Shown one piece after another: positions 5,139-16,588 of a stretch of DNA of 16,588 nucleotides. Origin of the DNA: an uncultured Deinococcales bacterium. Lineage in GTDB: Bacteria; Deinococcota; Deinococci; Deinococcales; JAAFIG01. The stretch is from positions 1 to 16,588 of the forward strand of contig CAXTKV010000115.1 in assembly GCA_964244895.1 (NCBI GenBank), given 5' to 3'. The notes beneath the pieces are model-generated. The model was not told where the DNA came from. It saw only the letters and a program-made list of their open reading frames with translations, and made no database searches. Each line of letters begins with the position of its first letter. The stretch's first letter is position 1. The translations under genes were made by a program, and so were the position numbers.

Positions 5139-5828
5139 CTACGGGCCGCGCTTGACCGCGTACCGCTTGGTGGGTCGCCCCACCCCACCGTGGGCCACCT
5201 CGAGCGAGACGAAGCCGATGCGGGCCAGGTGTTCGAGGTAACGCCAGGCGGTCACGCGGTTCAGGCCGACCCGCGCCCCGACCTCCTCGGCGCTCAGGGG
5301 TTCGTTGGCCTCGAGCAGCGTTTCCCTGACCCGCTCGAGGGTGGCCGGATCGACGCCTTTGGGCAAGTGCGCGTCCGAGGCGTGCCCGAGCAACCGATCC
5401 AGCCGCGCCTGCGTCAGGTTGCGCCCCTCGCGAATGGCCTCGCGCTCGCGGTAACGCCCGAGCGCTTGGCGCAACCGCGGGCGCTCGAAGGGCTTGATCA
5501 GATAGTCCAGGACTCCGTCTCGCAGGGCGATCTGCACCGAATCCACGTCGCTGGCGGCGGTGATCATGATCACCTCGAAAGACAGGCGTTCGGCGCGCAG
5601 CCGGTGAACCAGCTCCAGACCGCTGCCGTCGGGCAGGTAGACGTCCACCAGTAGCAGATCGGGCGCGAGCGACCGGGCGAGCGCCAGGCCTTCGCGAACG
5701 CTCTCGGCCTGTCCAACCACGAAGAAATCTTTTTCGGCCTCGACCATCTCGCGGTTGACGCGCGCCACCCAGAGGTCGTCCTCGATGAGGATCGCGCGGG
5801 CGGGTCGCGTCGAACTTCGGGCGTTCAT
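5139..5828 (-). CDS. CitB/DcuR/DctR-family response regulator
   Basis: Receiver domain IEDD...DLLLVDVYLPDGSG...ITAA...DYLIKPF, family-typical LPKG linker, and HTH LSAEEVG..VGLNRVTAWRYLEHL...GVGRP..Y. Confidence 0.93.
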   Translation of the reverse strand: MNARSSTRPARAILIEDDLWVARVNREMVEAEKDFFVVGQAESVREGLALARSLAPDLLLVDVYLPDGSGLELVHRLRAERLSFEVIMITAASDVDSVQIALRDGVLDYLIKPFERPRLRQALGRYREREAIREGRNLTQARLDRLLGHASDAHLPKGVDPATLERVRETLLEANEPLSAEEVGARVGLNRVTAWRYLEHLARIGFVSLEVAHGGVGRPTKRYAVKRGP

Positions 5829-7516
5829 CGCGGGTCGACGTCCGCGAGGGCGCTGGACGGAAGGCTCACCTGGAAGACCGTCAGACCGTCGCGCTCGAGG
5901 TGAACGACCGTCCCGCCGCGCGATTCGACCCGCTGCCGGACGAGGAAAAGCCCCAGGCCCCGCGACGCACCGCGCGTCGAGAAGCCGCGCTCGAAGATGC
6001 GCCCCAGCGCGGCGGGCCGCACGCCTGGGCCGCCGTCGCAGACCTCGATCTGCGCGCCGTCCGGGTCTTCACCGAGGGTCAACGTGACCGCCGAGGCTGG
6101 ACGCTCGAGCGCGGCATCGAAGGCGTTCTCCAACAGGTTACCGACCACCGGCACGAGCACGTCGGTCGCCAGCCGATCCCAGGCGCTCGAAAGGCCGGAG
6201 CCGGGTTCCAGCGAGAACGGAATCCCGAGTTCTCGGGCGCGCTCGAGCTTGCCGATCACCAGCGCGGCCAGTTTGGGCACTTCGATATCGCTGATCGCCT
6301 CGCGCACGGCGTCCTTCTGCGCGGATTCGTGCTGAATCAGCGCCAGCGCATCGAGCGGGCGCCCGAGCTGGATCAACCCGGCGATGGTGTGCAGGCGGTT
6401 CATGAACTCGTGCGTCTGGGCGCGAAGCAAGTCGGCGTACTCGCGCGTCTGGGTCAGTTCCTCGGCGATGCGCGTGACCTCCGCGCGGTCGCGAAAGGTC
6501 ACGACGCGCCGATCCTCCGAGGCCCGCAGGACGCGCACCAGCACGGGCATCCCCGAGGCCGAGAGCGCCTGGTTGATCGCGTTGGAGTCGCCCTCGAGTA
6601 ACCCGCTGGCGGCGAGCTCCGGCCAGGTCTCGCGGATCGGTGCGGGCAGGATGGTCTGCGGCTCGAGGCGCAACATCTCGGCGGCGCGAGGGTTCAGGAT
6701 CAAGATCTTTCCGCCCGCGTCCAGCACGATCACGCCCTCCTGGAGGGCGCTCAGCACGGCGCGGTGCTGCAAGACGAGCGCGGCGATCTCGTCCGGCTCG
6801 AGTTCGAGCAACTCGCGCTTGAAGCGCCTCGAGATCACGATGCTGCTCGAGAGCGCCAAGCCGAGCGCCAGCCCGAACCACGGCCAGAGCGTTCGGCTGA
6901 CGCGCGCGACGGTCGTCTGCACGGTCGGCAACAGGTAACCGGTCGAGACGAGCCCGATCACGCGCCCGTTCGCATCGCGGATCGGCACCTTGCCGCGCAC
7001 GGACAACCCCAGCCCGCCCAGCGCGACCGTGATGATCTCGCGCCCGGCCAGGGGCTCGAGCGTGTCCGAGGCGGGTTCGCTGCCCTCCATCATCGAACGC
7101 CCGATCTTTTCGGGCTGCGGGTGCGAAAGCCGGATGCCGTGGACATCGCCGACCACGATGAAATCCGCGCCGACCCGCCGGCGAATCCGGTTGGCGAGCG
7201 GATCGATGGTGCTCGAAGGCGCAGCTGACGTCGCGATCGCGCCCACCACCTCCGGCATGGCGGCGACGATCCTCGAGATGGCGAGCGCGCGCTCCCCGAA
7301 TTCCTCGCGGGTCGAGCGCTCGAGTACGAGCGTCAACGTCGCGGCCAGCACCAGCGTCAGCAGCGTGACCACGCCCGCCTGCCACAGGAACAACCTCGCC
7401 TGAATCCCGAGCGACCACCCGTTGCCGCGCGGCGGCACGACATCGCGCGTGCTGGCTGGCCACCCCGCGCGAGACCTCGAGCGTCCTTTGGTGTTGTCGC
7501 GTACCCGGACGCTCAC
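5825..7516 (-). CDS. CitA/DcuS/DctS-family sensor histidine kinase
   Basis: Two TM helices flank an sCache-like domain (DFIVVGD..GIRLSHP..EKIG, SVRGKVPI), followed by PAS (LQEGVIVLD), H-box RAQTHEFMNRLHTIAGL, N-box GNLLENAFDA and G boxes DGGPG/GFST/GLGL. GGAGG precedes the GTG start; the stop overlaps the regulator start. Confidence 0.93.
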   Translation of the reverse strand: MSVRVRDNTKGRSRSRAGWPASTRDVVPPRGNGWSLGIQARLFLWQAGVVTLLTLVLAATLTLVLERSTREEFGERALAISRIVAAMPEVVGAIATSAAPSSTIDPLANRIRRRVGADFIVVGDVHGIRLSHPQPEKIGRSMMEGSEPASDTLEPLAGREIITVALGGLGLSVRGKVPIRDANGRVIGLVSTGYLLPTVQTTVARVSRTLWPWFGLALGLALSSSIVISRRFKRELLELEPDEIAALVLQHRAVLSALQEGVIVLDAGGKILILNPRAAEMLRLEPQTILPAPIRETWPELAASGLLEGDSNAINQALSASGMPVLVRVLRASEDRRVVTFRDRAEVTRIAEELTQTREYADLLRAQTHEFMNRLHTIAGLIQLGRPLDALALIQHESAQKDAVREAISDIEVPKLAALVIGKLERARELGIPFSLEPGSGLSSAWDRLATDVLVPVVGNLLENAFDAALERPASAVTLTLGEDPDGAQIEVCDGGPGVRPAALGRIFERGFSTRGASRGLGLFLVRQRVESRGGTVVHLERDGLTVFQVSLPSSALADVDPR

Positions 7517-7658
7517 GTCAAGCCTCCAGCCCGTCCCCCAAGAAGTGTGATGCCCTCAGTCTACGCGCGAGCCCGAGCCAAATCCTGAACCCGCCCGTGG
7601 GCGTGCCGAGCGTCCCGTCTCCAGCATTCAGCTCGAGAATTCGTTCAGGACAGTCTTT

Positions 7659-8513
7659 TTACTCGCTCAAGACCGCCGGACGCCATTTGATCAGCCGATT
7701 CTCGAGCGCCGTGATCAACCCTTCCGCCGTCAACGCGACCGTCGCCAGGATCAGCATCGAGGCGAACACGCCCGCCGCGTTGAAACTGCCCTGAGCGGTC
7801 GCGATCATCAGCCCGATGCCGTGCCGCGAACCCAGGAACTCGCCCACCACCGCACCGACCAGCGCGAAGCTGAAGCTGATGTGCAAGCTGGCCAGAATCC
7901 AGCTCATGGCCGAGGGGATGATCACGGAGGTCGTGACCTGGCGCGGGCTCGCGCCCAGGATGCGGGCATTCGCGATCAGGTTCCGATCCGCCTCGCGCAC
8001 GCCCTGGAACGCGTTGCCGAAGACCACGAAAAAGACCATCACGACCGCCAGCGCGACCTTCGATTGCATCCCGAGCCCCAGCGTGATCACGAAGATCGAG
8101 CCCAGCACCACGCGCGGGATCGAGTTGGCGATGCGGATGTAGATGCTGAACACATCCGCCAAGAGCTTGTTGCGCCCCAGCGCGATGCCCGCGATGATGC
8201 CCAGCACCGCGCCGATCAGGAAGCCCAGCACGGTCTCCTCGAGCGTCACCAGAATTTCGAGCCACAAGGGTCCCTGGGATGTGCCATCGCGCGCCCAGAC
8301 CCAGACCTGCTCGAGCACCTTTGAAGGCATGGCGAAGAAGAACGGGTCGATCACCTTGAGCCGCGCCAAGCCTTCCCAGCCGCCCAGCGTCACGACCAGC
8401 ACGGCCACGCGCAGCGCGTTCACCAACTGCGAACGACGCCTGATCTGCTCGCGCGCCTGCACCTCGGCGGGGCTCGGCGCGGCGATCTGCGCGGCAGCGT
8501 TCGGCGCGGTCAC
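7659..8513 (-). CDS. NitT/TauT (SsuC/TauC-like) ABC transporter permease
   Basis: Multiple TM segments, NSIPRVVL, EAA-like loop NARILGAS..Q and GAVVGEFLGS..GIG. Confidence 0.93.
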   Translation of the reverse strand: MTAPNAAAQIAAPSPAEVQAREQIRRRSQLVNALRVAVLVVTLGGWEGLARLKVIDPFFFAMPSKVLEQVWVWARDGTSQGPLWLEILVTLEETVLGFLIGAVLGIIAGIALGRNKLLADVFSIYIRIANSIPRVVLGSIFVITLGLGMQSKVALAVVMVFFVVFGNAFQGVREADRNLIANARILGASPRQVTTSVIIPSAMSWILASLHISFSFALVGAVVGEFLGSRHGIGLMIATAQGSFNAAGVFASMLILATVALTAEGLITALENRLIKWRPAVLSE

Positions 8514-9349
8514 GCCGTCCCCCGCGCGCTGGAAAGCCGCTTGGATGTCTCGTAGGCGACCAGGACTTCCTCGCGCAGGTCGTTCCAGATGGTCTTGGAC
8601 AGCTCGACGAAGTGCGGGTCGTAACGAATTTCACTCGTGACCCTCGGGCGCGGCAGGTCGATGTCGTAGACGGCCTTGACCGTCGCCGGGCCGGAGGTCA
8701 GCACGAAGACGCGATCCGAGAGCGCGATCGCCTCCTCGAGATCGTGCGTCACGAAGACCACCGACGCGCCGCTCGAGGCCCACAGGTTCAGCAACTCGTC
8801 CTGCATCAGCACGCGCGTCTGCACGTCGAGCGCGCTGAAGGGCTCGTCCATCAGCATGATCTCGGGCTCGTTGATGAAGGTCTGCGCCAGCGCCACGCGC
8901 TTGCGCATTCCGCCGGAAAGCTGGTGCGGATAATGCCCCTCGAAACCCGCCAGCCCGACGCGCCCCACCCAATCCCGCGCCTTGGCCAACGCCTCGCGCC
9001 TCGGCGTACCGCGAAAAAGGGGCCCGGAGGCGACGTTCTCGAGCACGCTCTTCCACGGGAAGACCGCGTCCTGCTGGAACACGAAGCCGATGCGCGGGTC
9101 GATCTTCGTGACGGGCTGACCCATGACGCGCACCTCGCCATCGTTGGCCCGAGCCAACCCGGTAATCAGCCCGAGCGTGGTGGATTTGCCGCAGCCCGTC
9201 GGGCCGACCACCGCGCAGAACTCGCCCTTCTTGACCGTCATCGAGAAATCGCGCAGCGCCGTCAGCATCGACCCGTCCGGCGTGACGAAGCGCCGACTGA
9301 CGTGGCTGAGTTCGATGGCCGTATTCGGATCGGAAATCGTTTGTGTCAC
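8510..9349 (-). CDS. NitT/TauT (SsuB/TauB-like) ABC transporter ATP-binding protein
   Basis: Walker A GPTGCGKST, signature LSGGM, Walker B MLMDEPFSALD, H-loop VTHD, and C-terminal DLPRPR. Confidence 0.95.
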   Translation of the reverse strand: MTQTISDPNTAIELSHVSRRFVTPDGSMLTALRDFSMTVKKGEFCAVVGPTGCGKSTTLGLITGLARANDGEVRVMGQPVTKIDPRIGFVFQQDAVFPWKSVLENVASGPLFRGTPRREALAKARDWVGRVGLAGFEGHYPHQLSGGMRKRVALAQTFINEPEIMLMDEPFSALDVQTRVLMQDELLNLWASSGASVVFVTHDLEEAIALSDRVFVLTSGPATVKAVYDIDLPRPRVTSEIRYDPHFVELSKTIWNDLREEVLVAYETSKRLSSARGTA

Positions 9350-9392
9350 CCTTCACCCCTCTCCTGATTGCGTCCGGCTCGGGCCTCATATC

Positions 9393-9447
9393 CGAGAACA
9401 CCGTCCAGCACGATGTCGACTGAATCGCGTCCTGGACGGTGTTCTCG
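9393..9447. other. Intercistronic stem-loop between the substrate-binding protein and ATPase genes
   Basis: CGAGAACACCGTCCAG (9393-9408) and CTGGACGGTGTTCTCG (9432-9447) form a perfect 16-bp stem with no adjacent U-tract. Confidence 0.75.
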
Positions 9448-9465
9448 AGCCGTACGCTCGGGCCG

Positions 9466-10479
9466 TTACTTGACGTTCTTGACGAACTCGGTGGTGAAGG
9501 TCTTGGAAAGGTCGATGGTGGCGTTCTTGACGGTCGGCTTGAAGGTCGAAAGCACCTTCAGCACGGTCGGCGGGCCGCTTTCGGGCATCACACCGTCGAT
9601 CGTGAACATCAACTTGCCCGCCGCCAGCGCGTTGATGTAGAGTTCCGGATCACCGACCAGGTAATCGTTGGGCATCCTGGAGGCGATCGTCTTGGCATCG
9701 TTCTTGACGATGAAGCGCAGCGTCTTGACAAACGCATTGGCGAGCTTCTGCACCTCGAGCTTGTGCGAATTCACGTAATCTGTCGGCATGTACAGGCAGG
9801 CCGCCGGGTACAGCCCGCCGAGCGCCTTCTGGGTTTTTTCCGGGGTGCGCATGTCCACCAACACCTTCGCATCGCCCGTCTTGAGCATCCTCGAGATCGT
9901 GGGTTCGGTGGTCATGCCGACGTCGATCTGGCCCTGCTGCATGGCGGCGATGAAGGTGTTGCCCGCGCCGACCGGCAAGCGCGAAAATTGATCGACCCCG
10001 ACGCCGTTGATCACGCCCAGGTACTGCGTCAAAAAGTCGGTCGACGATCCGATGCCGGTCACGCCCGCCGTGCGGCCCTTCCAATCTTTGGGCGACTTGA
10101 TCTCGGCGGCTTTCTTGCTGGAGACGAGTTCGACCTCGCCGGGTGCGCGGCTGAATTGCACGACCGATTCCGTGCTCTTGCCGATGGCTTGAAGGTCGAC
10201 GTTGTGATCGTAGAAGCCGACCACGCCATCCACCTTGCCCGCCAGCATCTCGGTTTCGGCAGACACCCCTGCGGGTTCGTCCAGCAAATCGACCTCGAGC
10301 CCCTCGGCTTTGAAGTACCCAAGTTGCTCGGCCAGCTTGGCGGGAAGGTAGATCTGCTTGCTCAGACCGCCGACCATCAGCGTGACCTTCGATGTTTGCG
10401 CCCCGGCTCCATTGATCGCGACCAGACCAAGCGGCAAGAGCACGACCCCGACGGCGACGATTTTCGAGACTGGCTTCAC
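9466..10479 (-). CDS. NitT/TauT (NMT1/SsuA-like) ABC transporter substrate-binding protein
   Basis: GTG start at 10479 with a GGAGGAG SD. Signal peptide ending AGA|Q. MVGGLSKQIYLPAKLAEQLGYFKAEGL and GVTGIGSSTDFL. Confidence 0.92.
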   Translation of the reverse strand: MKPVSKIVAVGVVLLPLGLVAINGAGAQTSKVTLMVGGLSKQIYLPAKLAEQLGYFKAEGLEVDLLDEPAGVSAETEMLAGKVDGVVGFYDHNVDLQAIGKSTESVVQFSRAPGEVELVSSKKAAEIKSPKDWKGRTAGVTGIGSSTDFLTQYLGVINGVGVDQFSRLPVGAGNTFIAAMQQGQIDVGMTTEPTISRMLKTGDAKVLVDMRTPEKTQKALGGLYPAACLYMPTDYVNSHKLEVQKLANAFVKTLRFIVKNDAKTIASRMPNDYLVGDPELYINALAAGKLMFTIDGVMPESGPPTVLKVLSTFKPTVKNATIDLSKTFTTEFVKNVK

Positions 10480-10621
10480 GAATACTCCTCCCTTTCGCTC
10501 GAGACGCACCGCACCCGACCCGATCGTCGCGGCGTGGCACGACACACCCCTGCCGTATCTCGTCAGGCCAACCACGAGGACGCCTCACGACGGACAAATC
10601 TGATGTGTTCGATTGGTCGCC

Positions 10622-12290: not shown

Positions 12291-12404
12291 ATGAACCTCC
12301 TCGGGTCGGAATAGGTTCTCGGACTCCAGGGTGAACCCAGCGTGAAACAGTTGAACTCGCGCTGAAGATCGCGCCGCCGTAGCGCACGGCGTTGGCGCAC
12401 ACCG

Positions 12405-12719
12405 TTACCGACGCGCAGCCTGGCATTCGAAGGATGCGCATGAATGGTGAGCAATCGAGGACGCAGGTGCTACCTCCGACCATTCATCATTTGCCTCCCC
12501 TCGCCGGTGGCCGTATTCGGTGACTTGGTCGAATGACCAGGTGCGCCAGCGAGGTAATCGCACGCTATTCAGGAAAAATGACGGACTCATCCCTCGAGCG
12601 CGATCAAACCCAAATTGCGAAAGTGGGAGAATTCGTGCGTCGACGAGGCTTTCGAGTGTTGACTTACTCAGACCTGCTGGAGAAGTAGTCGAACCTGCCT
12701 GTGGTATCGGATTCGACAT
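12405..12719 (-). CDS. Hypothetical small protein directly downstream of XRE-1
   Basis: ATG lies 4 nt after the XRE-1 stop; 104-aa ORF in a visibly less GC-rich stretch with no motif. Confidence 0.3.
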   Translation of the reverse strand: MSNPIPQAGSTTSPAGLSKSTLESLVDARILPLSQFGFDRARGMSPSFFLNSVRLPRWRTWSFDQVTEYGHRRGEANDEWSEVAPASSIAHHSCASFECQAARR

Positions 12720-12723
12720 GGTT

Positions 12724-13002
12724 CTATTTCGTCCGCCGTTGGTTTGGCTCCGACAAGGTGACCAGCGCTCTCAACTCTACCGGTTCGTAAACCAGTTCGA
12801 AGGCGTAGACCTCGAGCGCGATCGCGATCTTGTTGATGACCTCTAGCCCTGGGTTCCTGCGTCGACCGCTCTCAAGGTTCTGAAGGTACTTTTCGCCCAG
12901 GCCCGCGCGCGTGGCGAGTTGCTCTTGCGTATAGCCTCGCGCCTCGCGCAGCAACCGAATCCGGTTGCGGAGCGTGTCGGCGTCGATGGCGTACTGGGGC
13001 AT
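12724..13002 (-). CDS. XRE/Cro-C1-type HTH transcriptional regulator (XRE-1, 92 aa)
   Basis: RIRLLREARGYTQEQLATRAGLGEKYLQNLESGRRRNPGLEVINKIAIALEV. The start at 13002 aligns ungapped with the XRE-2 Met. Confidence 0.93.
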   Translation of the reverse strand: MPQYAIDADTLRNRIRLLREARGYTQEQLATRAGLGEKYLQNLESGRRRNPGLEVINKIAIALEVYAFELVYEPVELRALVTLSEPNQRRTK

Positions 13003-13035
13003 GCCCTCGCACCGTACGGATTCGACCCCAGTCAA

Positions 13036-13057
13036 TACACCTCCGTATGGAGGTGTA
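13036..13057. promoter_or_regulatory. Palindromic operator 1 overlapping a plus-strand -10 (TAGAAT, 13056-13061)
   Basis: TACACCTCC-GTAT-GGAGGTGTA, between the divergent XRE-1 and lipoprotein genes. Confidence 0.8.
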
Positions 13058-13128
13058 GAATCTCGAGCGTACCCAACGACCCCGCCCGACAAGGCGGCGA
13101 TCGACCCAACCCGCACGCGGAGGATCGG

Positions 13129-14301
13129 ATGCCCGAGCAGACCCCAACCGTCGCACCCACCAACTACACATCGCTCCCACCCCACACCGTCACGGTTTCC
13201 CTGCGCATGGCCCAGGATCCCAGACCCGCCCTAAGGCGTCCTTACCCCCGCCGCGCGTGGTTCCCGCTCGCCCTCACGCTCGCTCTGCTCCCCGCCTGCG
13301 CCCCCCAACTTGCCGCTGGTAAATCCCGCACCGCGCTCGCCGTCGAACCCCTCCAACGCCTCCTGATCATGATGCGCAAAGGTGACATCGACGCCGTCAA
13401 CACCTTCCCAGTCGCCAACACGACCGCCGGAACCGACACCGACACCACTTCTATCCGTGCCTACGACCCCTTCCAGACGCGCGACCTCAAAGACCTGCTC
13501 GCGCGCTCCCCAAAGCTCAAAGAGGCTCTCGCTCGGATCGCCATCGATCCCGATCCGCCGTTCGTCGAGGAAGGCCAGGCGTTCCTCTCAGGCCAATCAT
13601 TCGAGGGGCAGCCGATCTACTTCTACTCGGGCCGCGTGATTTTCAAACTCGCTCTGCCGGACGCGCCAGCCGAGAAGTTCACCTTGACCTACTGGATCGA
13701 TGGGCCGAGGGTGACGTACGCCGACTCCGGGTTGAGCGGCCCTCGGGCGATGCTCGCCAACTACCGCCGCTACATCGAGTCGTATCCCGAGCGCGCGAAA
13801 CTGGCCGCGCCACCGGCTCAGGGCAACCCCAGCGCATCCGGGACGTCTAGCGCACCCTCGAGCACTCCAAACCTCCCAACAGCCTCCTCGGCTATCCCGC
13901 TGGCGGCGAACTCCGCAGTGCAACCGACGTTGCCCAGTTCGGCGGTGGCTTCCGCCTGGTGGCCGACCATCAACGCAGGTCAGACGTGGGACGTGACGGT
14001 GGGCCGCTACGCTTGGCGGGTGACGCTCACCCAGCGGGTCGAGCAGGCTGGAGCCTCGAGCATTGTCGGTTCGGCAGTGGGAACCACGGGCGGCGCGCCC
14101 GGTGCGATCGCGGCGTTCGCAATCGTGCCATCCTCGAGCGCGGTGATCCTGGCCTTGCAGAACGACGCGTTTAGCCTCAGGTGCGAGTTCAGCGCGGCGC
14201 AATCGGGCGGCACGAAGCTGGGCGGAATGGCGACGCTGCGCGCGGCACGCTCAAGGATAGACGAGGCCTTCGGGCCGTGCAGCGCTGCGCTCGAACGATG
14301 A
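13129..14301 (+). CDS. Putative two-domain lipoprotein of unknown function
   Basis: ATG 13129 with GGAGG SD (alternative ATG 13207). RRAWFPLALTLALLPA|C lipobox-like signal, Ser/Pro/Ala linker, and a beta-rich C-terminal domain with two Cys. Confidence 0.7.
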   Translation: MPEQTPTVAPTNYTSLPPHTVTVSLRMAQDPRPALRRPYPRRAWFPLALTLALLPACAPQLAAGKSRTALAVEPLQRLLIMMRKGDIDAVNTFPVANTTAGTDTDTTSIRAYDPFQTRDLKDLLARSPKLKEALARIAIDPDPPFVEEGQAFLSGQSFEGQPIYFYSGRVIFKLALPDAPAEKFTLTYWIDGPRVTYADSGLSGPRAMLANYRRYIESYPERAKLAAPPAQGNPSASGTSSAPSSTPNLPTASSAIPLAANSAVQPTLPSSAVASAWWPTINAGQTWDVTVGRYAWRVTLTQRVEQAGASSIVGSAVGTTGGAPGAIAAFAIVPSSSAVILALQNDAFSLRCEFSAAQSGGTKLGGMATLRAARSRIDEAFGPCSAALER

Positions 14302-14357
14302 ACCGCTGCACTCCGCCTCGCGCTCGCAAAAACGTGACGAGCATAGTCGGCAGGACC

Positions 14358-14615
14358 TCACGCCTCCAACTCGAGCATTTTTTTGAGTACATCAGGCTCG
14401 TAAAGGAGTCCGTATACGTGTACTTCGAGGGCGAGTGCGAGTCGGTTCAGTACATCCAGCCCTGGGTTTGCGCGACGGCCCAGTTCGAGATCCTGGATGT
14501 ACTTCTCGTGCAATCCGGCGCGCTCAGCCAGCTGTTCCTGGGTCAAGCTTCGGGCTTGGCGCAAGGCTCGAATGCGGCGCTGTAGTGTCCGGGGATCCAC
14601 CGTAAGGGCCGTCAT
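14358..14615 (-). CDS. XRE/Cro-C1-type HTH transcriptional regulator (XRE-2, 85 aa)
   Basis: RIRALRQARSLTQEQLAERAGLHEKYIQDLELGRRANPGLDVLNRLALALEV; paralog of XRE-1. Confidence 0.93.
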   Translation of the reverse strand: MTALTVDPRTLQRRIRALRQARSLTQEQLAERAGLHEKYIQDLELGRRANPGLDVLNRLALALEVHVYGLLYEPDVLKKMLELEA

Positions 14616-14650
14616 GCGTGAGGCCACGCTATGGAGTTCAACTACGAACG

Positions 14651-14672
14651 AACACCGTCAACTGACGGTGTA
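14651..14672. promoter_or_regulatory. Palindromic operator 2 overlapping a plus-strand -10 (TAAACT, 14671-14676)
   Basis: A-ACACCGTCA-AC-TGACGGTGT-A, between the divergent XRE-2 and the 589-aa gene. Confidence 0.8.
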
Positions 14673-14790
14673 AACTGCCTTTGCTTTTTGTACATATCAG
14701 CCCGTGTGCTTCGAACACCTACCCCGCCGGACTTCTCCCACTGCGACGTGCTGGCCGTATCGAACGATGCGGTTCCGCCTGGAGGAAACA

Positions 14791-16560
14791 ATGCCGAAAC
14801 GACGAATATTCCGATCCGTGACGCCCGGACAGTACGCGCAACTGAAACGGCTCATCACTCCTGCGCTCGTGAGCGGCAACGGCGTCGCGATCGAACCCGA
14901 TCCTGAACCGCTCGTACCGTTCGCCAACACTTGCGGTCCGCGTGTTTACGTCGCGCGTCGGCAGCGAGGATGGAGCGCGACCCGGCTCGCAAGCGAGGTC
15001 AACGTCCTGCTCGAGTCTTTAAGCGCAGAGCCCCCCGAGATCATTCCGGGCGAGTTCATGGTCGGCGACCTCCAGCGCGAGCGCGCGGCGTTTTTCGGCA
15101 CCAAGGGGCGGCTATGGAACGGATTCTTGGCGACAGACAAGCACCGGGCTGCCGTCGCACCATCGACGCGACCCCGACGGCTGAGCGCGCGCTCGGTCAT
15201 CGGCATCGAACAGCGCGAACTCTGCGTGAGCGACACGCTGCTGGACCCCCTGGCGACCGTCCTCGGCGTCCCGAAACACTGGCTACAAGACGAGCGCGCC
15301 GTCTGGCCACCCGAGACCGGAAGTGCGAACCCGGACGAGCTAACCGCTGCACTTGATCTCCTCGAGGGAGGCGATGGGCTCGAGTCGGGCGAGTTCGCGT
15401 GGCTCCGGCCCGTTCTGGCGGAACCCGCCGCACTCAGGGTGATCGAATCGGCCTGCGGCGCGCTCGCGCGCTACGGGGATCCAACGATGAAAATCATGAA
15501 GACTGAAATGCTTCAGGTCGACCGGCTCGAGCGCACCTGGCGACGGATTTTCGGGGGATTGCCCGAGGCTCCTTGGTTTACGGACACGTGGGAGGTGCAG
15601 CTGCAAGACCTCGACCCTCTGGACGACGCGTTCGAGCAGCATCGAATGTGGCTGCGCGACGCAATCCGTAACGACATCAGATTCCGCGAGACACTCGCCG
15701 AGCGTCGGGCGTACGCCAACGGCGTGAACGACGCCCGACGCGAGACGCTGGTCAAGTTGAGCGCCGTTCAGCGCGCGGTTCATGAAACGTTCGGCTCAAA
15801 AGATGAGTTCGAGGCTCCGCTCGAGGTGCTGCGGCTGCGCGCTGAACTCGAACGCGCGCAATCCGAAATTGCGACGATGCACCACCAAAATATATCCGCA
15901 GTCCGAGCGCTCGAGGAGGTGAACAAAACCAACAAACGGTTGGAAAAAAATCTGGCGGACTTTCAAAGTGCGGTGCGACCTGCGACGCCCATCCCAACAC
16001 GATCAGAACTGGTTCGATTTGCGGAGCAGTACGAAGTGCTCGAGCCGAGGGGGCCGATCCCCGCCTCGAGTGAGGAGCTGACCACAGCCTTGACCCAATT
16101 CCTGATCGAACTGCGCGCTTTCCTCGACGAGCAGCTGAGCGAGCGAGATGCGCTGGCCCACGAGCGCGAACAGCGCACGCTGATCCGCATCGAGACGCAG
16201 ATGCGCAAGATGGTCGAGCAGTTCGAGCAGATCCGGGCGCGCGTTCGAGCGCAGAACGCGCCAGCGCCTCAAGGCAACCCCAGCCCTTCGCGGCCAGCAG
16301 CGGGCAGCGGATCGGCGCGCACCGCACCCCCGAAGTACACGACCGCCGAAGCACGCGAGATCGAGCGCGTATCGGGCAGCATCGTCGCGTCGCTGCGCGC
16401 AAACACAAACCGCGAAATGACAAAATCGGTGATCGCCTCCCGGCACACCGACGAGGACAAGCGTTACCTGGCTGCGGCGTACCAGCACCTCGAGAGCAAC
16501 CGTGTCATCAGCATCGTCGGCAACACGGTAAAGTGGGCGTGTCAAGCGAAGTGTGGCTAA
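14791..16560 (+). CDS. Uncharacterised 589-aa protein: interrupted XRE-like HTH, coiled coils, C-terminal winged-helix-like domain
   Basis: GGAGG SD 5 nt before ATG 14791. GPRVYVARRQRGWSATRLASEV...LSARSVIGIEQR...LDPLATVLGVPKHWL, heptad-rich LRLRAELERAQSEI...LEKNL, and C-terminal MTKSVIASR...LAAAYQHLESNRVISIVGNTVKW. Confidence 0.75.
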   Translation: MPKRRIFRSVTPGQYAQLKRLITPALVSGNGVAIEPDPEPLVPFANTCGPRVYVARRQRGWSATRLASEVNVLLESLSAEPPEIIPGEFMVGDLQRERAAFFGTKGRLWNGFLATDKHRAAVAPSTRPRRLSARSVIGIEQRELCVSDTLLDPLATVLGVPKHWLQDERAVWPPETGSANPDELTAALDLLEGGDGLESGEFAWLRPVLAEPAALRVIESACGALARYGDPTMKIMKTEMLQVDRLERTWRRIFGGLPEAPWFTDTWEVQLQDLDPLDDAFEQHRMWLRDAIRNDIRFRETLAERRAYANGVNDARRETLVKLSAVQRAVHETFGSKDEFEAPLEVLRLRAELERAQSEIATMHHQNISAVRALEEVNKTNKRLEKNLADFQSAVRPATPIPTRSELVRFAEQYEVLEPRGPIPASSEELTTALTQFLIELRAFLDEQLSERDALAHEREQRTLIRIETQMRKMVEQFEQIRARVRAQNAPAPQGNPSPSRPAAGSGSARTAPPKYTTAEAREIERVSGSIVASLRANTNREMTKSVIASRHTDEDKRYLAAAYQHLESNRVISIVGNTVKWACQAKCG

Positions 16561-16588
16561 CGGCTTTCACACCGGCATCCGATCCTCG

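Follow-up and report, generated by a model that had tools for sequence, protein, structure and literature searches.

A 589-residue orphan protein of an uncultured Deinococcales bacterium with a predicted XRE-type helix-turn-helix domain split by a conserved 59-residue insert

The stretch of DNA analysed here (the window, 16,588 nucleotides) is the whole of contig C115 (CAXTKV010000115.1), one of the 328 contigs of the 5.12-Mb, 91% complete genome of an uncultured Deinococcales bacterium, and its last open reading frame (ORF) encodes a protein of 589 residues, named P0001, which is the subject of this report. By its sequence, the N-terminal domain of P0001 appears to be derived from an XRE-type helix-turn-helix (HTH) domain and to be interrupted by a conserved insert of 59 residues. 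Tentatively, and with no great confidence, we favour the reading that the gene is under purifying selection and encodes a predicted DNA-binding oligomer with a split XRE domain, which is likely repressed by a small neighbouring regulator, XRE2, via a 20-bp palindrome. Few DNA-binding modules are as common in bacteria as XRE/Cro-C1 domains, and the geometry of helix 2, turn and helix 3 is treated as invariant. If the reading is true, the two halves of the fold, kept around a constrained 59-residue insert, would show how far the XRE fold can be remodelled. The domain was missed by curated profiles, Pfam giving nothing, and was recovered by a split-profile test and validated by a 90% identical second copy. 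With two copies only, the impact is limited for now. The features on which the main finding rests are as follows.

14791..16560, forward strand: ORF of 589 codons encoding P0001, a sequence orphan
14781..14786, forward strand: strong Shine-Dalgarno sequence GGAGGA, 4 nt before the ATG at 14791 of P0001
14932..15003, forward strand: residues 48-71, corresponding to XRE-type helices 1-2; the profile (positions 3-28) aligns with 48-73; predicted local distance difference test score (pLDDT) >90 in the alignment-guided model
15004..15180, forward strand: insert, residues 72-130; optimum of the deletion scan; pLDDT 42-65; unique in the genome
15181..15285, forward strand: residues 131-165, corresponding to XRE-type helices 3-5; the profile (positions 27-57) aligns with 131-161; pLDDT >90 at 148-166

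The interruption was traced with an XRE profile of 80 sequences, comprising XRE2, its paralogue XRE1, six database relatives and 72 tblastn hits from 80 loci. On P0001 this profile matched two collinear halves (residues 48-73 and 131-161) and nothing else comparable, and the protein has counterparts of all five profile helices, in unchanged order. The native N-terminal 180 residues scored 10.6 bits, a value reached by none of 500 shuffled sequences (maximum 3.8). Removal of the insert raised the score to 23.7-24.2 bits: among 1,050 deletions made in silico the best were those of residues 73-131 (24.2 bits) and 72-130 (23.7 bits), each removing 59 residues. When 100 shuffled sequences were put through the identical scan, their best scores had a median of 0.2 and a 95th percentile of 3.2 bits, and the highest of all was 9.5 bits; deletions of 58 residues at other places in P0001 gave no more than 3.6 bits. 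When residues 40-175 were aligned with 38 XREs by MAFFT, a single gap of 59 columns was opened, placed at 80-138, and E140 of P0001 was paired with the invariant Glu of the XRE 'IERG' motif; deletion of 80-138 in this second register gave 21.7 bits. Given the two registers (72-130 and 80-138), the site of the insert would be either the turn that joins helices 2 and 3 or the final turn of helix 3. In place of a contiguous helix 2, tight turn and helix 3, P0001 has 59 extra residues. An earlier note on this DNA had described an XRE HTH split by 59 codons at 15004-15180, and the profile halves, the deletion scan, the shuffles and the MAFFT gap all bear it out. With the insert removed, the core and signature positions of both halves are seen to be kept well enough for 24 bits. 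Among the PHROGs, phrog_2328 ('transcriptional repressor') matched P0001 with E 1.6e-4 and 22.4 bits, the best stretch being 145-177, with no single stretch passing alone; XRE1 and XRE2 match the same family. In the ESM Atlas, HTH_3 clusters were among the nearest (0.76-0.79), and these are leads only.

The reading frame of P0001 is open from 14704 to 16560 and comprises 589 codons from the ATG at 14791, so that the ORF, its coordinates and its length as given in the earlier note hold. The GC content at the three codon positions (0.68/0.48/0.75) has a coding pattern. A second copy was found in a public metagenome run, X1, on a 1,630-nt contig that is about 90% identical and covers 14945-16399 in an ungapped alignment with 145 differences; over this range it contains neither frameshifts nor stops. 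The codon analysis covers 48 of the 145 differences, namely the first 40 by position and 8 in 16240-16399, which fall in 43 codons, and all codon counts given here are among these differences. Synonymous changes were found in 24 of the 43 changed codons, with 26% expected if they were random, compared to 8 of 44 and 10 of 43 in the other two forward frames. The 30 loose letters of X1 after 16399 are collinear in frame (VATNYEMTKS vs ANTNREMTKS in the window), with clustered substitutions. The P0001 gene is real, is kept by purifying selection and is present in a second sample. Within the insert 13 of 15 changed codons were synonymous and there were no indels; judged by these codons, the insert is under purifying selection and a part of the protein. 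Two other origins of the insert were considered and rejected. Against mobile DNA, it has no notable flanking direct or inverted repeats and no other copy in the genome, as DNA or as peptide, and no Rfam family was found in the window. Against an internal duplication, its comparison with residues 131-178 gave a score of 22, reached by 278 of 1,000 shuffles, and the XRE profile does not match the insert.

Searches for further relatives of P0001 were not successful. Two libraries that sample about 15 billion proteins yielded no homologue; one match, P0003 (E 2e-4), was judged spurious, as this protein is repetitive and rich in Cys, Ser and Val and matches one 40-residue stretch four times. The gene is missing from 60 related genomes, in which only two low-complexity matches were obtained, both to the Pro/Ser/Ala linker, and no relative was found in viral contigs, plasmids (searched by tblastn) or phages. 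NCBIfam gave nothing relevant (three rows, all with E of at least 0.044), and neither did a sequence search of the PDB (both rows with E of at least 0.03). A search of sequencing runs returned one run with a small share of the words, and none of the runs listed was an RNA run. The earlier note recognised no known family of this architecture, and no characterised family matched the whole of it in the searches of Pfam, NCBIfam, PDB sequences and the protein homologue libraries.

A structural model of the N-terminal domain was produced with AlphaFold2 (AF2) for residues 40-175 with the XRE alignment as input. The mean pLDDT was 70, and helices 1 and 2 (48-59 and 63-70) and helices 4 and 5 (148-158 and 162-166) were the parts modelled above 90; within the poorly modelled insert one helix was predicted at 92-104. 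With the insert trimmed, VIA-align superposed the model on the N-terminal domain of CapH (7t5u; Z 9.9, root-mean-square deviation (rmsd) 1.9, 65 of 66 residues) and on the 434 repressor (1per; Z 9.2, rmsd 1.5, 63 of 63 residues). By entry title, all 50 rows listed contain an XRE/Cro-C1-type HTH domain; with CapH, SinR, the 434 repressor and C.AhdI the superposition extends over 63-67 residues at Z 9.2-9.9. Since the model was guided by XRE rows, the structural likeness indicates compatibility and is not independent evidence.

The region upstream of P0001 contains two small XRE genes, each with a palindrome and a divergent neighbour.

14358..14615, reverse strand: XRE2, small XRE regulator (HTH_3, E 2.1e-13), divergent from P0001
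14652..14671, no strand assigned: 20-bp palindrome ACACC-N10-GGTGT in the 175 nt between P0001 and XRE2 (14616-14790), putative operator of XRE2
12724..13002, reverse strand: XRE1, paralogous XRE regulator (HTH_3, E 1.7e-13), 47 of 84 residues identical to XRE2
13037..13056, no strand assigned: XRE1 palindrome, at the same distance upstream of its gene as the XRE2 palindrome, with which it aligns
13129..14301, forward strand: orphan ORF, cargo of the XRE1 module; it has a lipoprotein-like hydrophobic segment and the motif LLPAC, which resembles a lipobox

The start of XRE2, the ATG at 14615, was set by its 84% identical relative P0004. The palindrome lies about 37 nt upstream of this ATG, and its 18-nt core is unique in the window (0.01 expected). 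XRE1 is located 1.4 kb upstream and is divergent from its lipoprotein-like cargo, whose Shine-Dalgarno sequence GGAGGA (13119-13124) and ATG at 13129 have the same geometry as those of P0001. The cargo had no Pfam, PHROG or PADLOC match. Kinship of P0001 with this cargo, or with the ORF divergent from a third XRE paralogue elsewhere in the genome, was considered and rejected, the proteins not being related. The pattern ACACC-N10-GGTGT occurs at five sites in the 5.12 Mb of the genome, and three of these are upstream of the three XRE paralogues, the third being at C191:3922-3941. In each of the three XRE-linked palindromes 8 of the 10 spacer positions are self-complementary, and the other two sites have non-palindromic spacers. 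Judging from these sequences, the three palindromes are likely a family of putative autoregulatory operators with differing inner specificity. The neighbours of the third XRE paralogue have no Pfam family. By profile, the nearest solved relatives of the XRE alignment, which is made mostly of the small XREs and their relatives, were restriction-modification (R-M) controller proteins, SinR, DdrO and CapH. A scan of 12300-16588 for sigma-70-like promoters gave no sites. The divergent small XRE with its palindrome, the duplication of the module next door and the absence from 60 relatives point to a locally regulated accessory gene rather than to a nucleoid protein.

Beyond the XRE-type domain, the middle of P0001 can be divided into the following parts.

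15286..15612, forward strand: residues 166-274, a region rich in Trp and acidic (net charge -10); the first part differs between the two copies
15799..15987, forward strand: heptad stretch 1, residues 337-399; one register, window scores 0.65-0.88
16156..16281, forward strand: heptad stretch 2, residues 456-497; one register, scores 0.65-0.78; helix 427-488 in the low-confidence model
16255..16338, forward strand: Pro/Ser/Ala-rich linker, residues 489-516, read in the sequence; Q494R, P497I and S498D in X1

Six Trp are found in residues 166-290. In residues 166-221, 11 of the 15 codons changed in X1 were non-synonymous, including L184P and S199P, and this part behaves like a variable linker, as the changes are mostly non-synonymous and two of them are to proline. 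Heptads were scored with a home-made measure, not COILS or MARCOIL, whose null distribution has its 95% point at 0.60 and its 99% point at 0.70. One register over at least four heptads, free of Pro and Gly, was found in 337-399 and 456-497; the score of segments 275-335 and 427-455 does not stand out. Single-sequence AF2 predicted helices at 275-335, 342-395 and 427-488, with pLDDT of 65-78 only around 300-390. A complex prediction for two copies of residues 275-490 scored 0.18 against a mark of 0.32 and was made without controls. Of the parts named in the earlier note, the Trp-rich region and the Pro/Ser/Ala linker are read directly in the sequence. Its coiled coils are partly confirmed, as heptads at 337-399 and 456-497, and a long coiled-coil rod finds no support, since only about 60 and about 40 residues are covered, with Pro-containing breaks between them.

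The 3' end of the gene runs into a repeat at the end of the contig.

16339..16533, forward strand: residues 517-581, a small helical domain near the C-terminus, modelled as three helices with pLDDT of 40-48
16535..16588, no strand assigned: end of a multi-copy repeat, giving codons 582-589 (ACQAKCG after W) and the stop codon; contig end

At the C-terminus the earlier note had seen a helix-helix-helix-beta-hairpin end, taken as a winged-helix-like second DNA-binding module. In the single-sequence AF2 model, helices were predicted at 518-548, 554-569 and 572-588, and no beta-hairpin. Pfam gave nothing for the C-terminal piece at E up to 10 except a coiled-coil model (E 0.34), and the only match in a sequence search of the PDB was a designed helical repeat. 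For the C-terminal 85 residues the ESM Atlas gave the winged-helix families DsrD and Mnd1-HTH at 0.83, which is sub-threshold and flagged 'often chance'. The hairpin end could not be confirmed from these results, and a second DNA-binding module at the C-terminus found support in none of them (AF2, Pfam, PDB sequences or Atlas).

The repeat begins inside codon 582 of P0001, and the contig ends 28 nt past the stop codon. A stretch of 50-54 nt of it recurs unchanged at 8 contig ends, spread over 7 contigs and always oriented from unique sequence into repeat; besides the window it is found on C5, C161, C187 (both ends), C215, C225 and C297, and it starts with GGGCGTGTCAAGCG. The tail ACQAKCG* ends four unrelated ORFs, which are P0001, a metallo-beta-lactamase (MBL)-fold ORF, a MazE-like ORF and one without a family, and in a different frame the repeat is also entered by a CarboxypepD_reg ORF. 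As the multi-copy repeat encodes residues 582-589, the C-terminus of P0001 here is not the native one. The repeat is also present in run X1, with another flank; the X1 contig carrying the second copy of the gene extends 175 nt beyond 16399, and its end is not aligned to the repeat part. The repeat may be an element of the insertion sequence or miniature inverted-repeat transposable element (MITE) type, for which it is a candidate. It was not found in 20 relatives, two metagenome scans or plasmids, and it has no unusual fold. As all contigs of the genome are at least 2 kb long, the own contig of a short element may be missing. A diverged copy of the repeat end (about 79% over 56 nt) was seen in C15:20139-20559, in a 480-nt spacer that separates a HAMP/HisKA kinase gene from a DUF4432 gene; Rfam had no match to this copy, and another part of the same spacer is itself repeated on C153, C67, C46 and C98. 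A 14-nt string, GAGGATCGGATGCC, at 13120-13133, which covers the Shine-Dalgarno sequence and ATG of the XRE1 cargo, is the reverse complement of 16572-16585 in the repeat, an identity that may be due to chance or be a trace of recombination. At the other end of the window, positions 1-70 are 98.6% identical to the 70 nt with which contig C258 begins, a sign of another assembly-breaking repeat, and a 34-nt near-palindrome was noted at 174-207.

The rest of the contig encodes a CitA/CitB-like two-component pair, an ABC transporter, a hydrolase and a ComEA-like gene. On the reverse strand at 5139-10575 lie a CitA/DcuS-like sensor kinase (sCache_3_2, PAS, HATPase), a DpiA/CitB-like response regulator and an adjoining ABC transporter with an NMT1-type binding protein. 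The contig contains no tRNA, and in a comparison of synteny with one complete genome of the family only a 181-aa gene was in common.

In the reading we favour, the interrupted XRE domain of P0001 would bind DNA, with the insert re-shaping or gating its recognition helix, and the protein would oligomerise through its two heptad-repeat helices. XRE2 would repress transcription of P0001 via the palindrome in the common intergenic region, and the two proteins together might form a local switch of the accessory region, similar to cI/Cro or Stl/Str. A number of results weigh against this. DNA binding could be lost with an insert located at or in the recognition helix, and helix 3 was not formed as a continuous helix in the alignment-guided model. 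Foldseek with the N-terminal model gave no match at E <= 0.001, and the single-sequence AF2 model of the whole P0001 (mean pLDDT 43) was too poor for a structure search. With E values up to 10 allowed, Pfam listed eight families for the whole protein, all with E of at least 0.16 and none of them an HTH family, and the pieces 41-71, 131-173 and 1-173 likewise matched no HTH family. The known copies of the gene are two, in this genome and in X1, hence there is no covariation and no independent structure. The GC content at third codon positions of P0001, 0.75, is at the 13th percentile among 1,229 long coding-like ORFs of the genome; as this is no outlier, the composition is not a mark of foreign origin. 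No integrase, replication or other mobile-element gene was found among the 28 ORFs scanned across the 16.6-kb contig. The small XREs may be plain local repressors and not switch partners, given that XRE1 pairs with a lipoprotein-like non-HTH cargo. Finally, the copy of P0001 found here may be truncated, its 3' end having been replaced by the repeat.

In the main rival reading, the XRE-like domain would be a non-binding relic, its HTH disrupted by the insert, and would act as a protein-interaction or sensing module. P0001 would then serve as a scaffold or an effector, in defence or some accessory function for instance, and its expression would simply be repressed by XRE2. The position of the insert at or in the recognition helix, the lack of a match to any curated HTH profile, the unformed helix 3 and the control of an unrelated lipoprotein-like cargo by the paralogous XRE1 are all in line with this proposal, as are the resemblance of XRE2 to CapH and R-M controllers, which are regulators of defence genes, and the patchy distribution, the gene not being found in 60 relatives. 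However, the hydrophobic-core and signature positions of both halves are kept, giving 24 bits without the insert, and the insert itself changes almost only synonymously among the differences listed, so that the whole domain appears to be maintained; the best PADLOC match to P0001 was no better than E 0.006 and 13 bits. We consider a relic within an effector to be possible, though doubtful. It is improbable, in our view, that P0001 here is a decaying, non-functional copy of a functional ancestral gene, with its 3' end removed by a mobile repeat. This could be argued from the repeat, which starts inside codon 582 and gives the stop and which ends three other ORFs with ACQAKCG*, and from the X1 contig end, where the failure of the sequence beyond 16399 to align to the repeat is a weak hint that the relative lacks it there. 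Yet 581 codons are intact behind a strong Shine-Dalgarno sequence, the comparison with X1 over 14945-16399 revealed no frameshift or stop, and the loss may amount to few residues, as the MBL-fold and MazE-like ORFs ending in the repeat are near-normal in length.

A further proposal, made in the earlier note, placed DNA-binding modules at both ends of a coiled-coil rod, with a bridging, looping, segregation, nucleoid- or partition-type role, and this we hold to be a little less probable still; none of the results speaks for DNA bridging, segregation or a nucleoid role. The XRE-type module is supported at the N-terminus and heptad stretches do exist, and at the C-terminus the sequence, by eye, fits a helix-helix-helix-strand pattern, to which the sub-threshold Atlas leads to DsrD and Mnd1 HTH may be added. 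But no fold or family evidence was obtained for a C-terminal winged helix, and the C-terminus is here derived from the repeat. A long rigid rod is not what the middle region suggests, with heptads of about 60 and 40 residues, Pro breaks and a segment at 176-221 that is variable and takes Pro. In the window no ParA/ParB/SMC-type partner was found, and a gene not found in 60 related genomes is unlikely to encode a core nucleoid protein.

Among known systems P0001 is closest to the XRE/Cro-C1 family (HTH_3, PF01381; CapH 7t5u, SinR 1b0n, 434 repressor 1per, C.AhdI 1y7y). Both halves of the domain are present in the right order, and the adjoining small XRE genes are ordinary members of that family; P0001 differs from it by the 59-residue insert at helices 2/3 and by its size of 589 aa, with about 420 residues that have no family. 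The divergent repressor pairs cI/Cro and SaPI Stl/Str resemble the locus in that a large protein with an XRE-type domain is divergent from a small XRE, with a palindrome as candidate operator in the common intergenic region, and the Stl structure was among the structural matches of the alignment-guided model. Unlike in these pairs, the contig contains no integrase, excisionase, replication or packaging genes, P0001 has no peptidase S24 or other known C-terminal repressor domain, and the paralogous XRE1 pairs with a non-HTH cargo. KfrA of IncP plasmids and RacA of Bacillus have an N-terminal HTH followed by an alpha-helical coiled-coil tail, and P0001 has the same order of an HTH and then long helices with heptad character. 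It differs from them in the class of its HTH, having no match to the DNA-binding domain KfrA_N (PF11740) and no MerR-type match at E up to 10, and its heptads are short and interrupted, with no plasmid or partition context.

In a full-text literature search no paper was found that describes an XRE/Cro-C1 domain with an insert in the HTH. The atypical homeodomain of HNF1A (LFB1) is described as having a 21-residue insert between helices 2 and 3 of its HTH (PMC4901127), and it is the only documented precedent found for an insert in this position. HNF1A has a homeodomain of eukaryotic type and not an XRE fold, its insert is of 21 residues against 59, and there is no sequence relation, so that the likeness is an analogy only. 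As a long shot, P0001 might represent a bacterial counterpart of this 'looped' homeodomain with an insert of almost three times the length, a new DNA-binding design in which a 59-residue module, kept by selection in the region of the recognition helix, would re-specify or gate binding, within an orphan coiled-coil protein that would form a two-component switch with its Cro-like neighbour.

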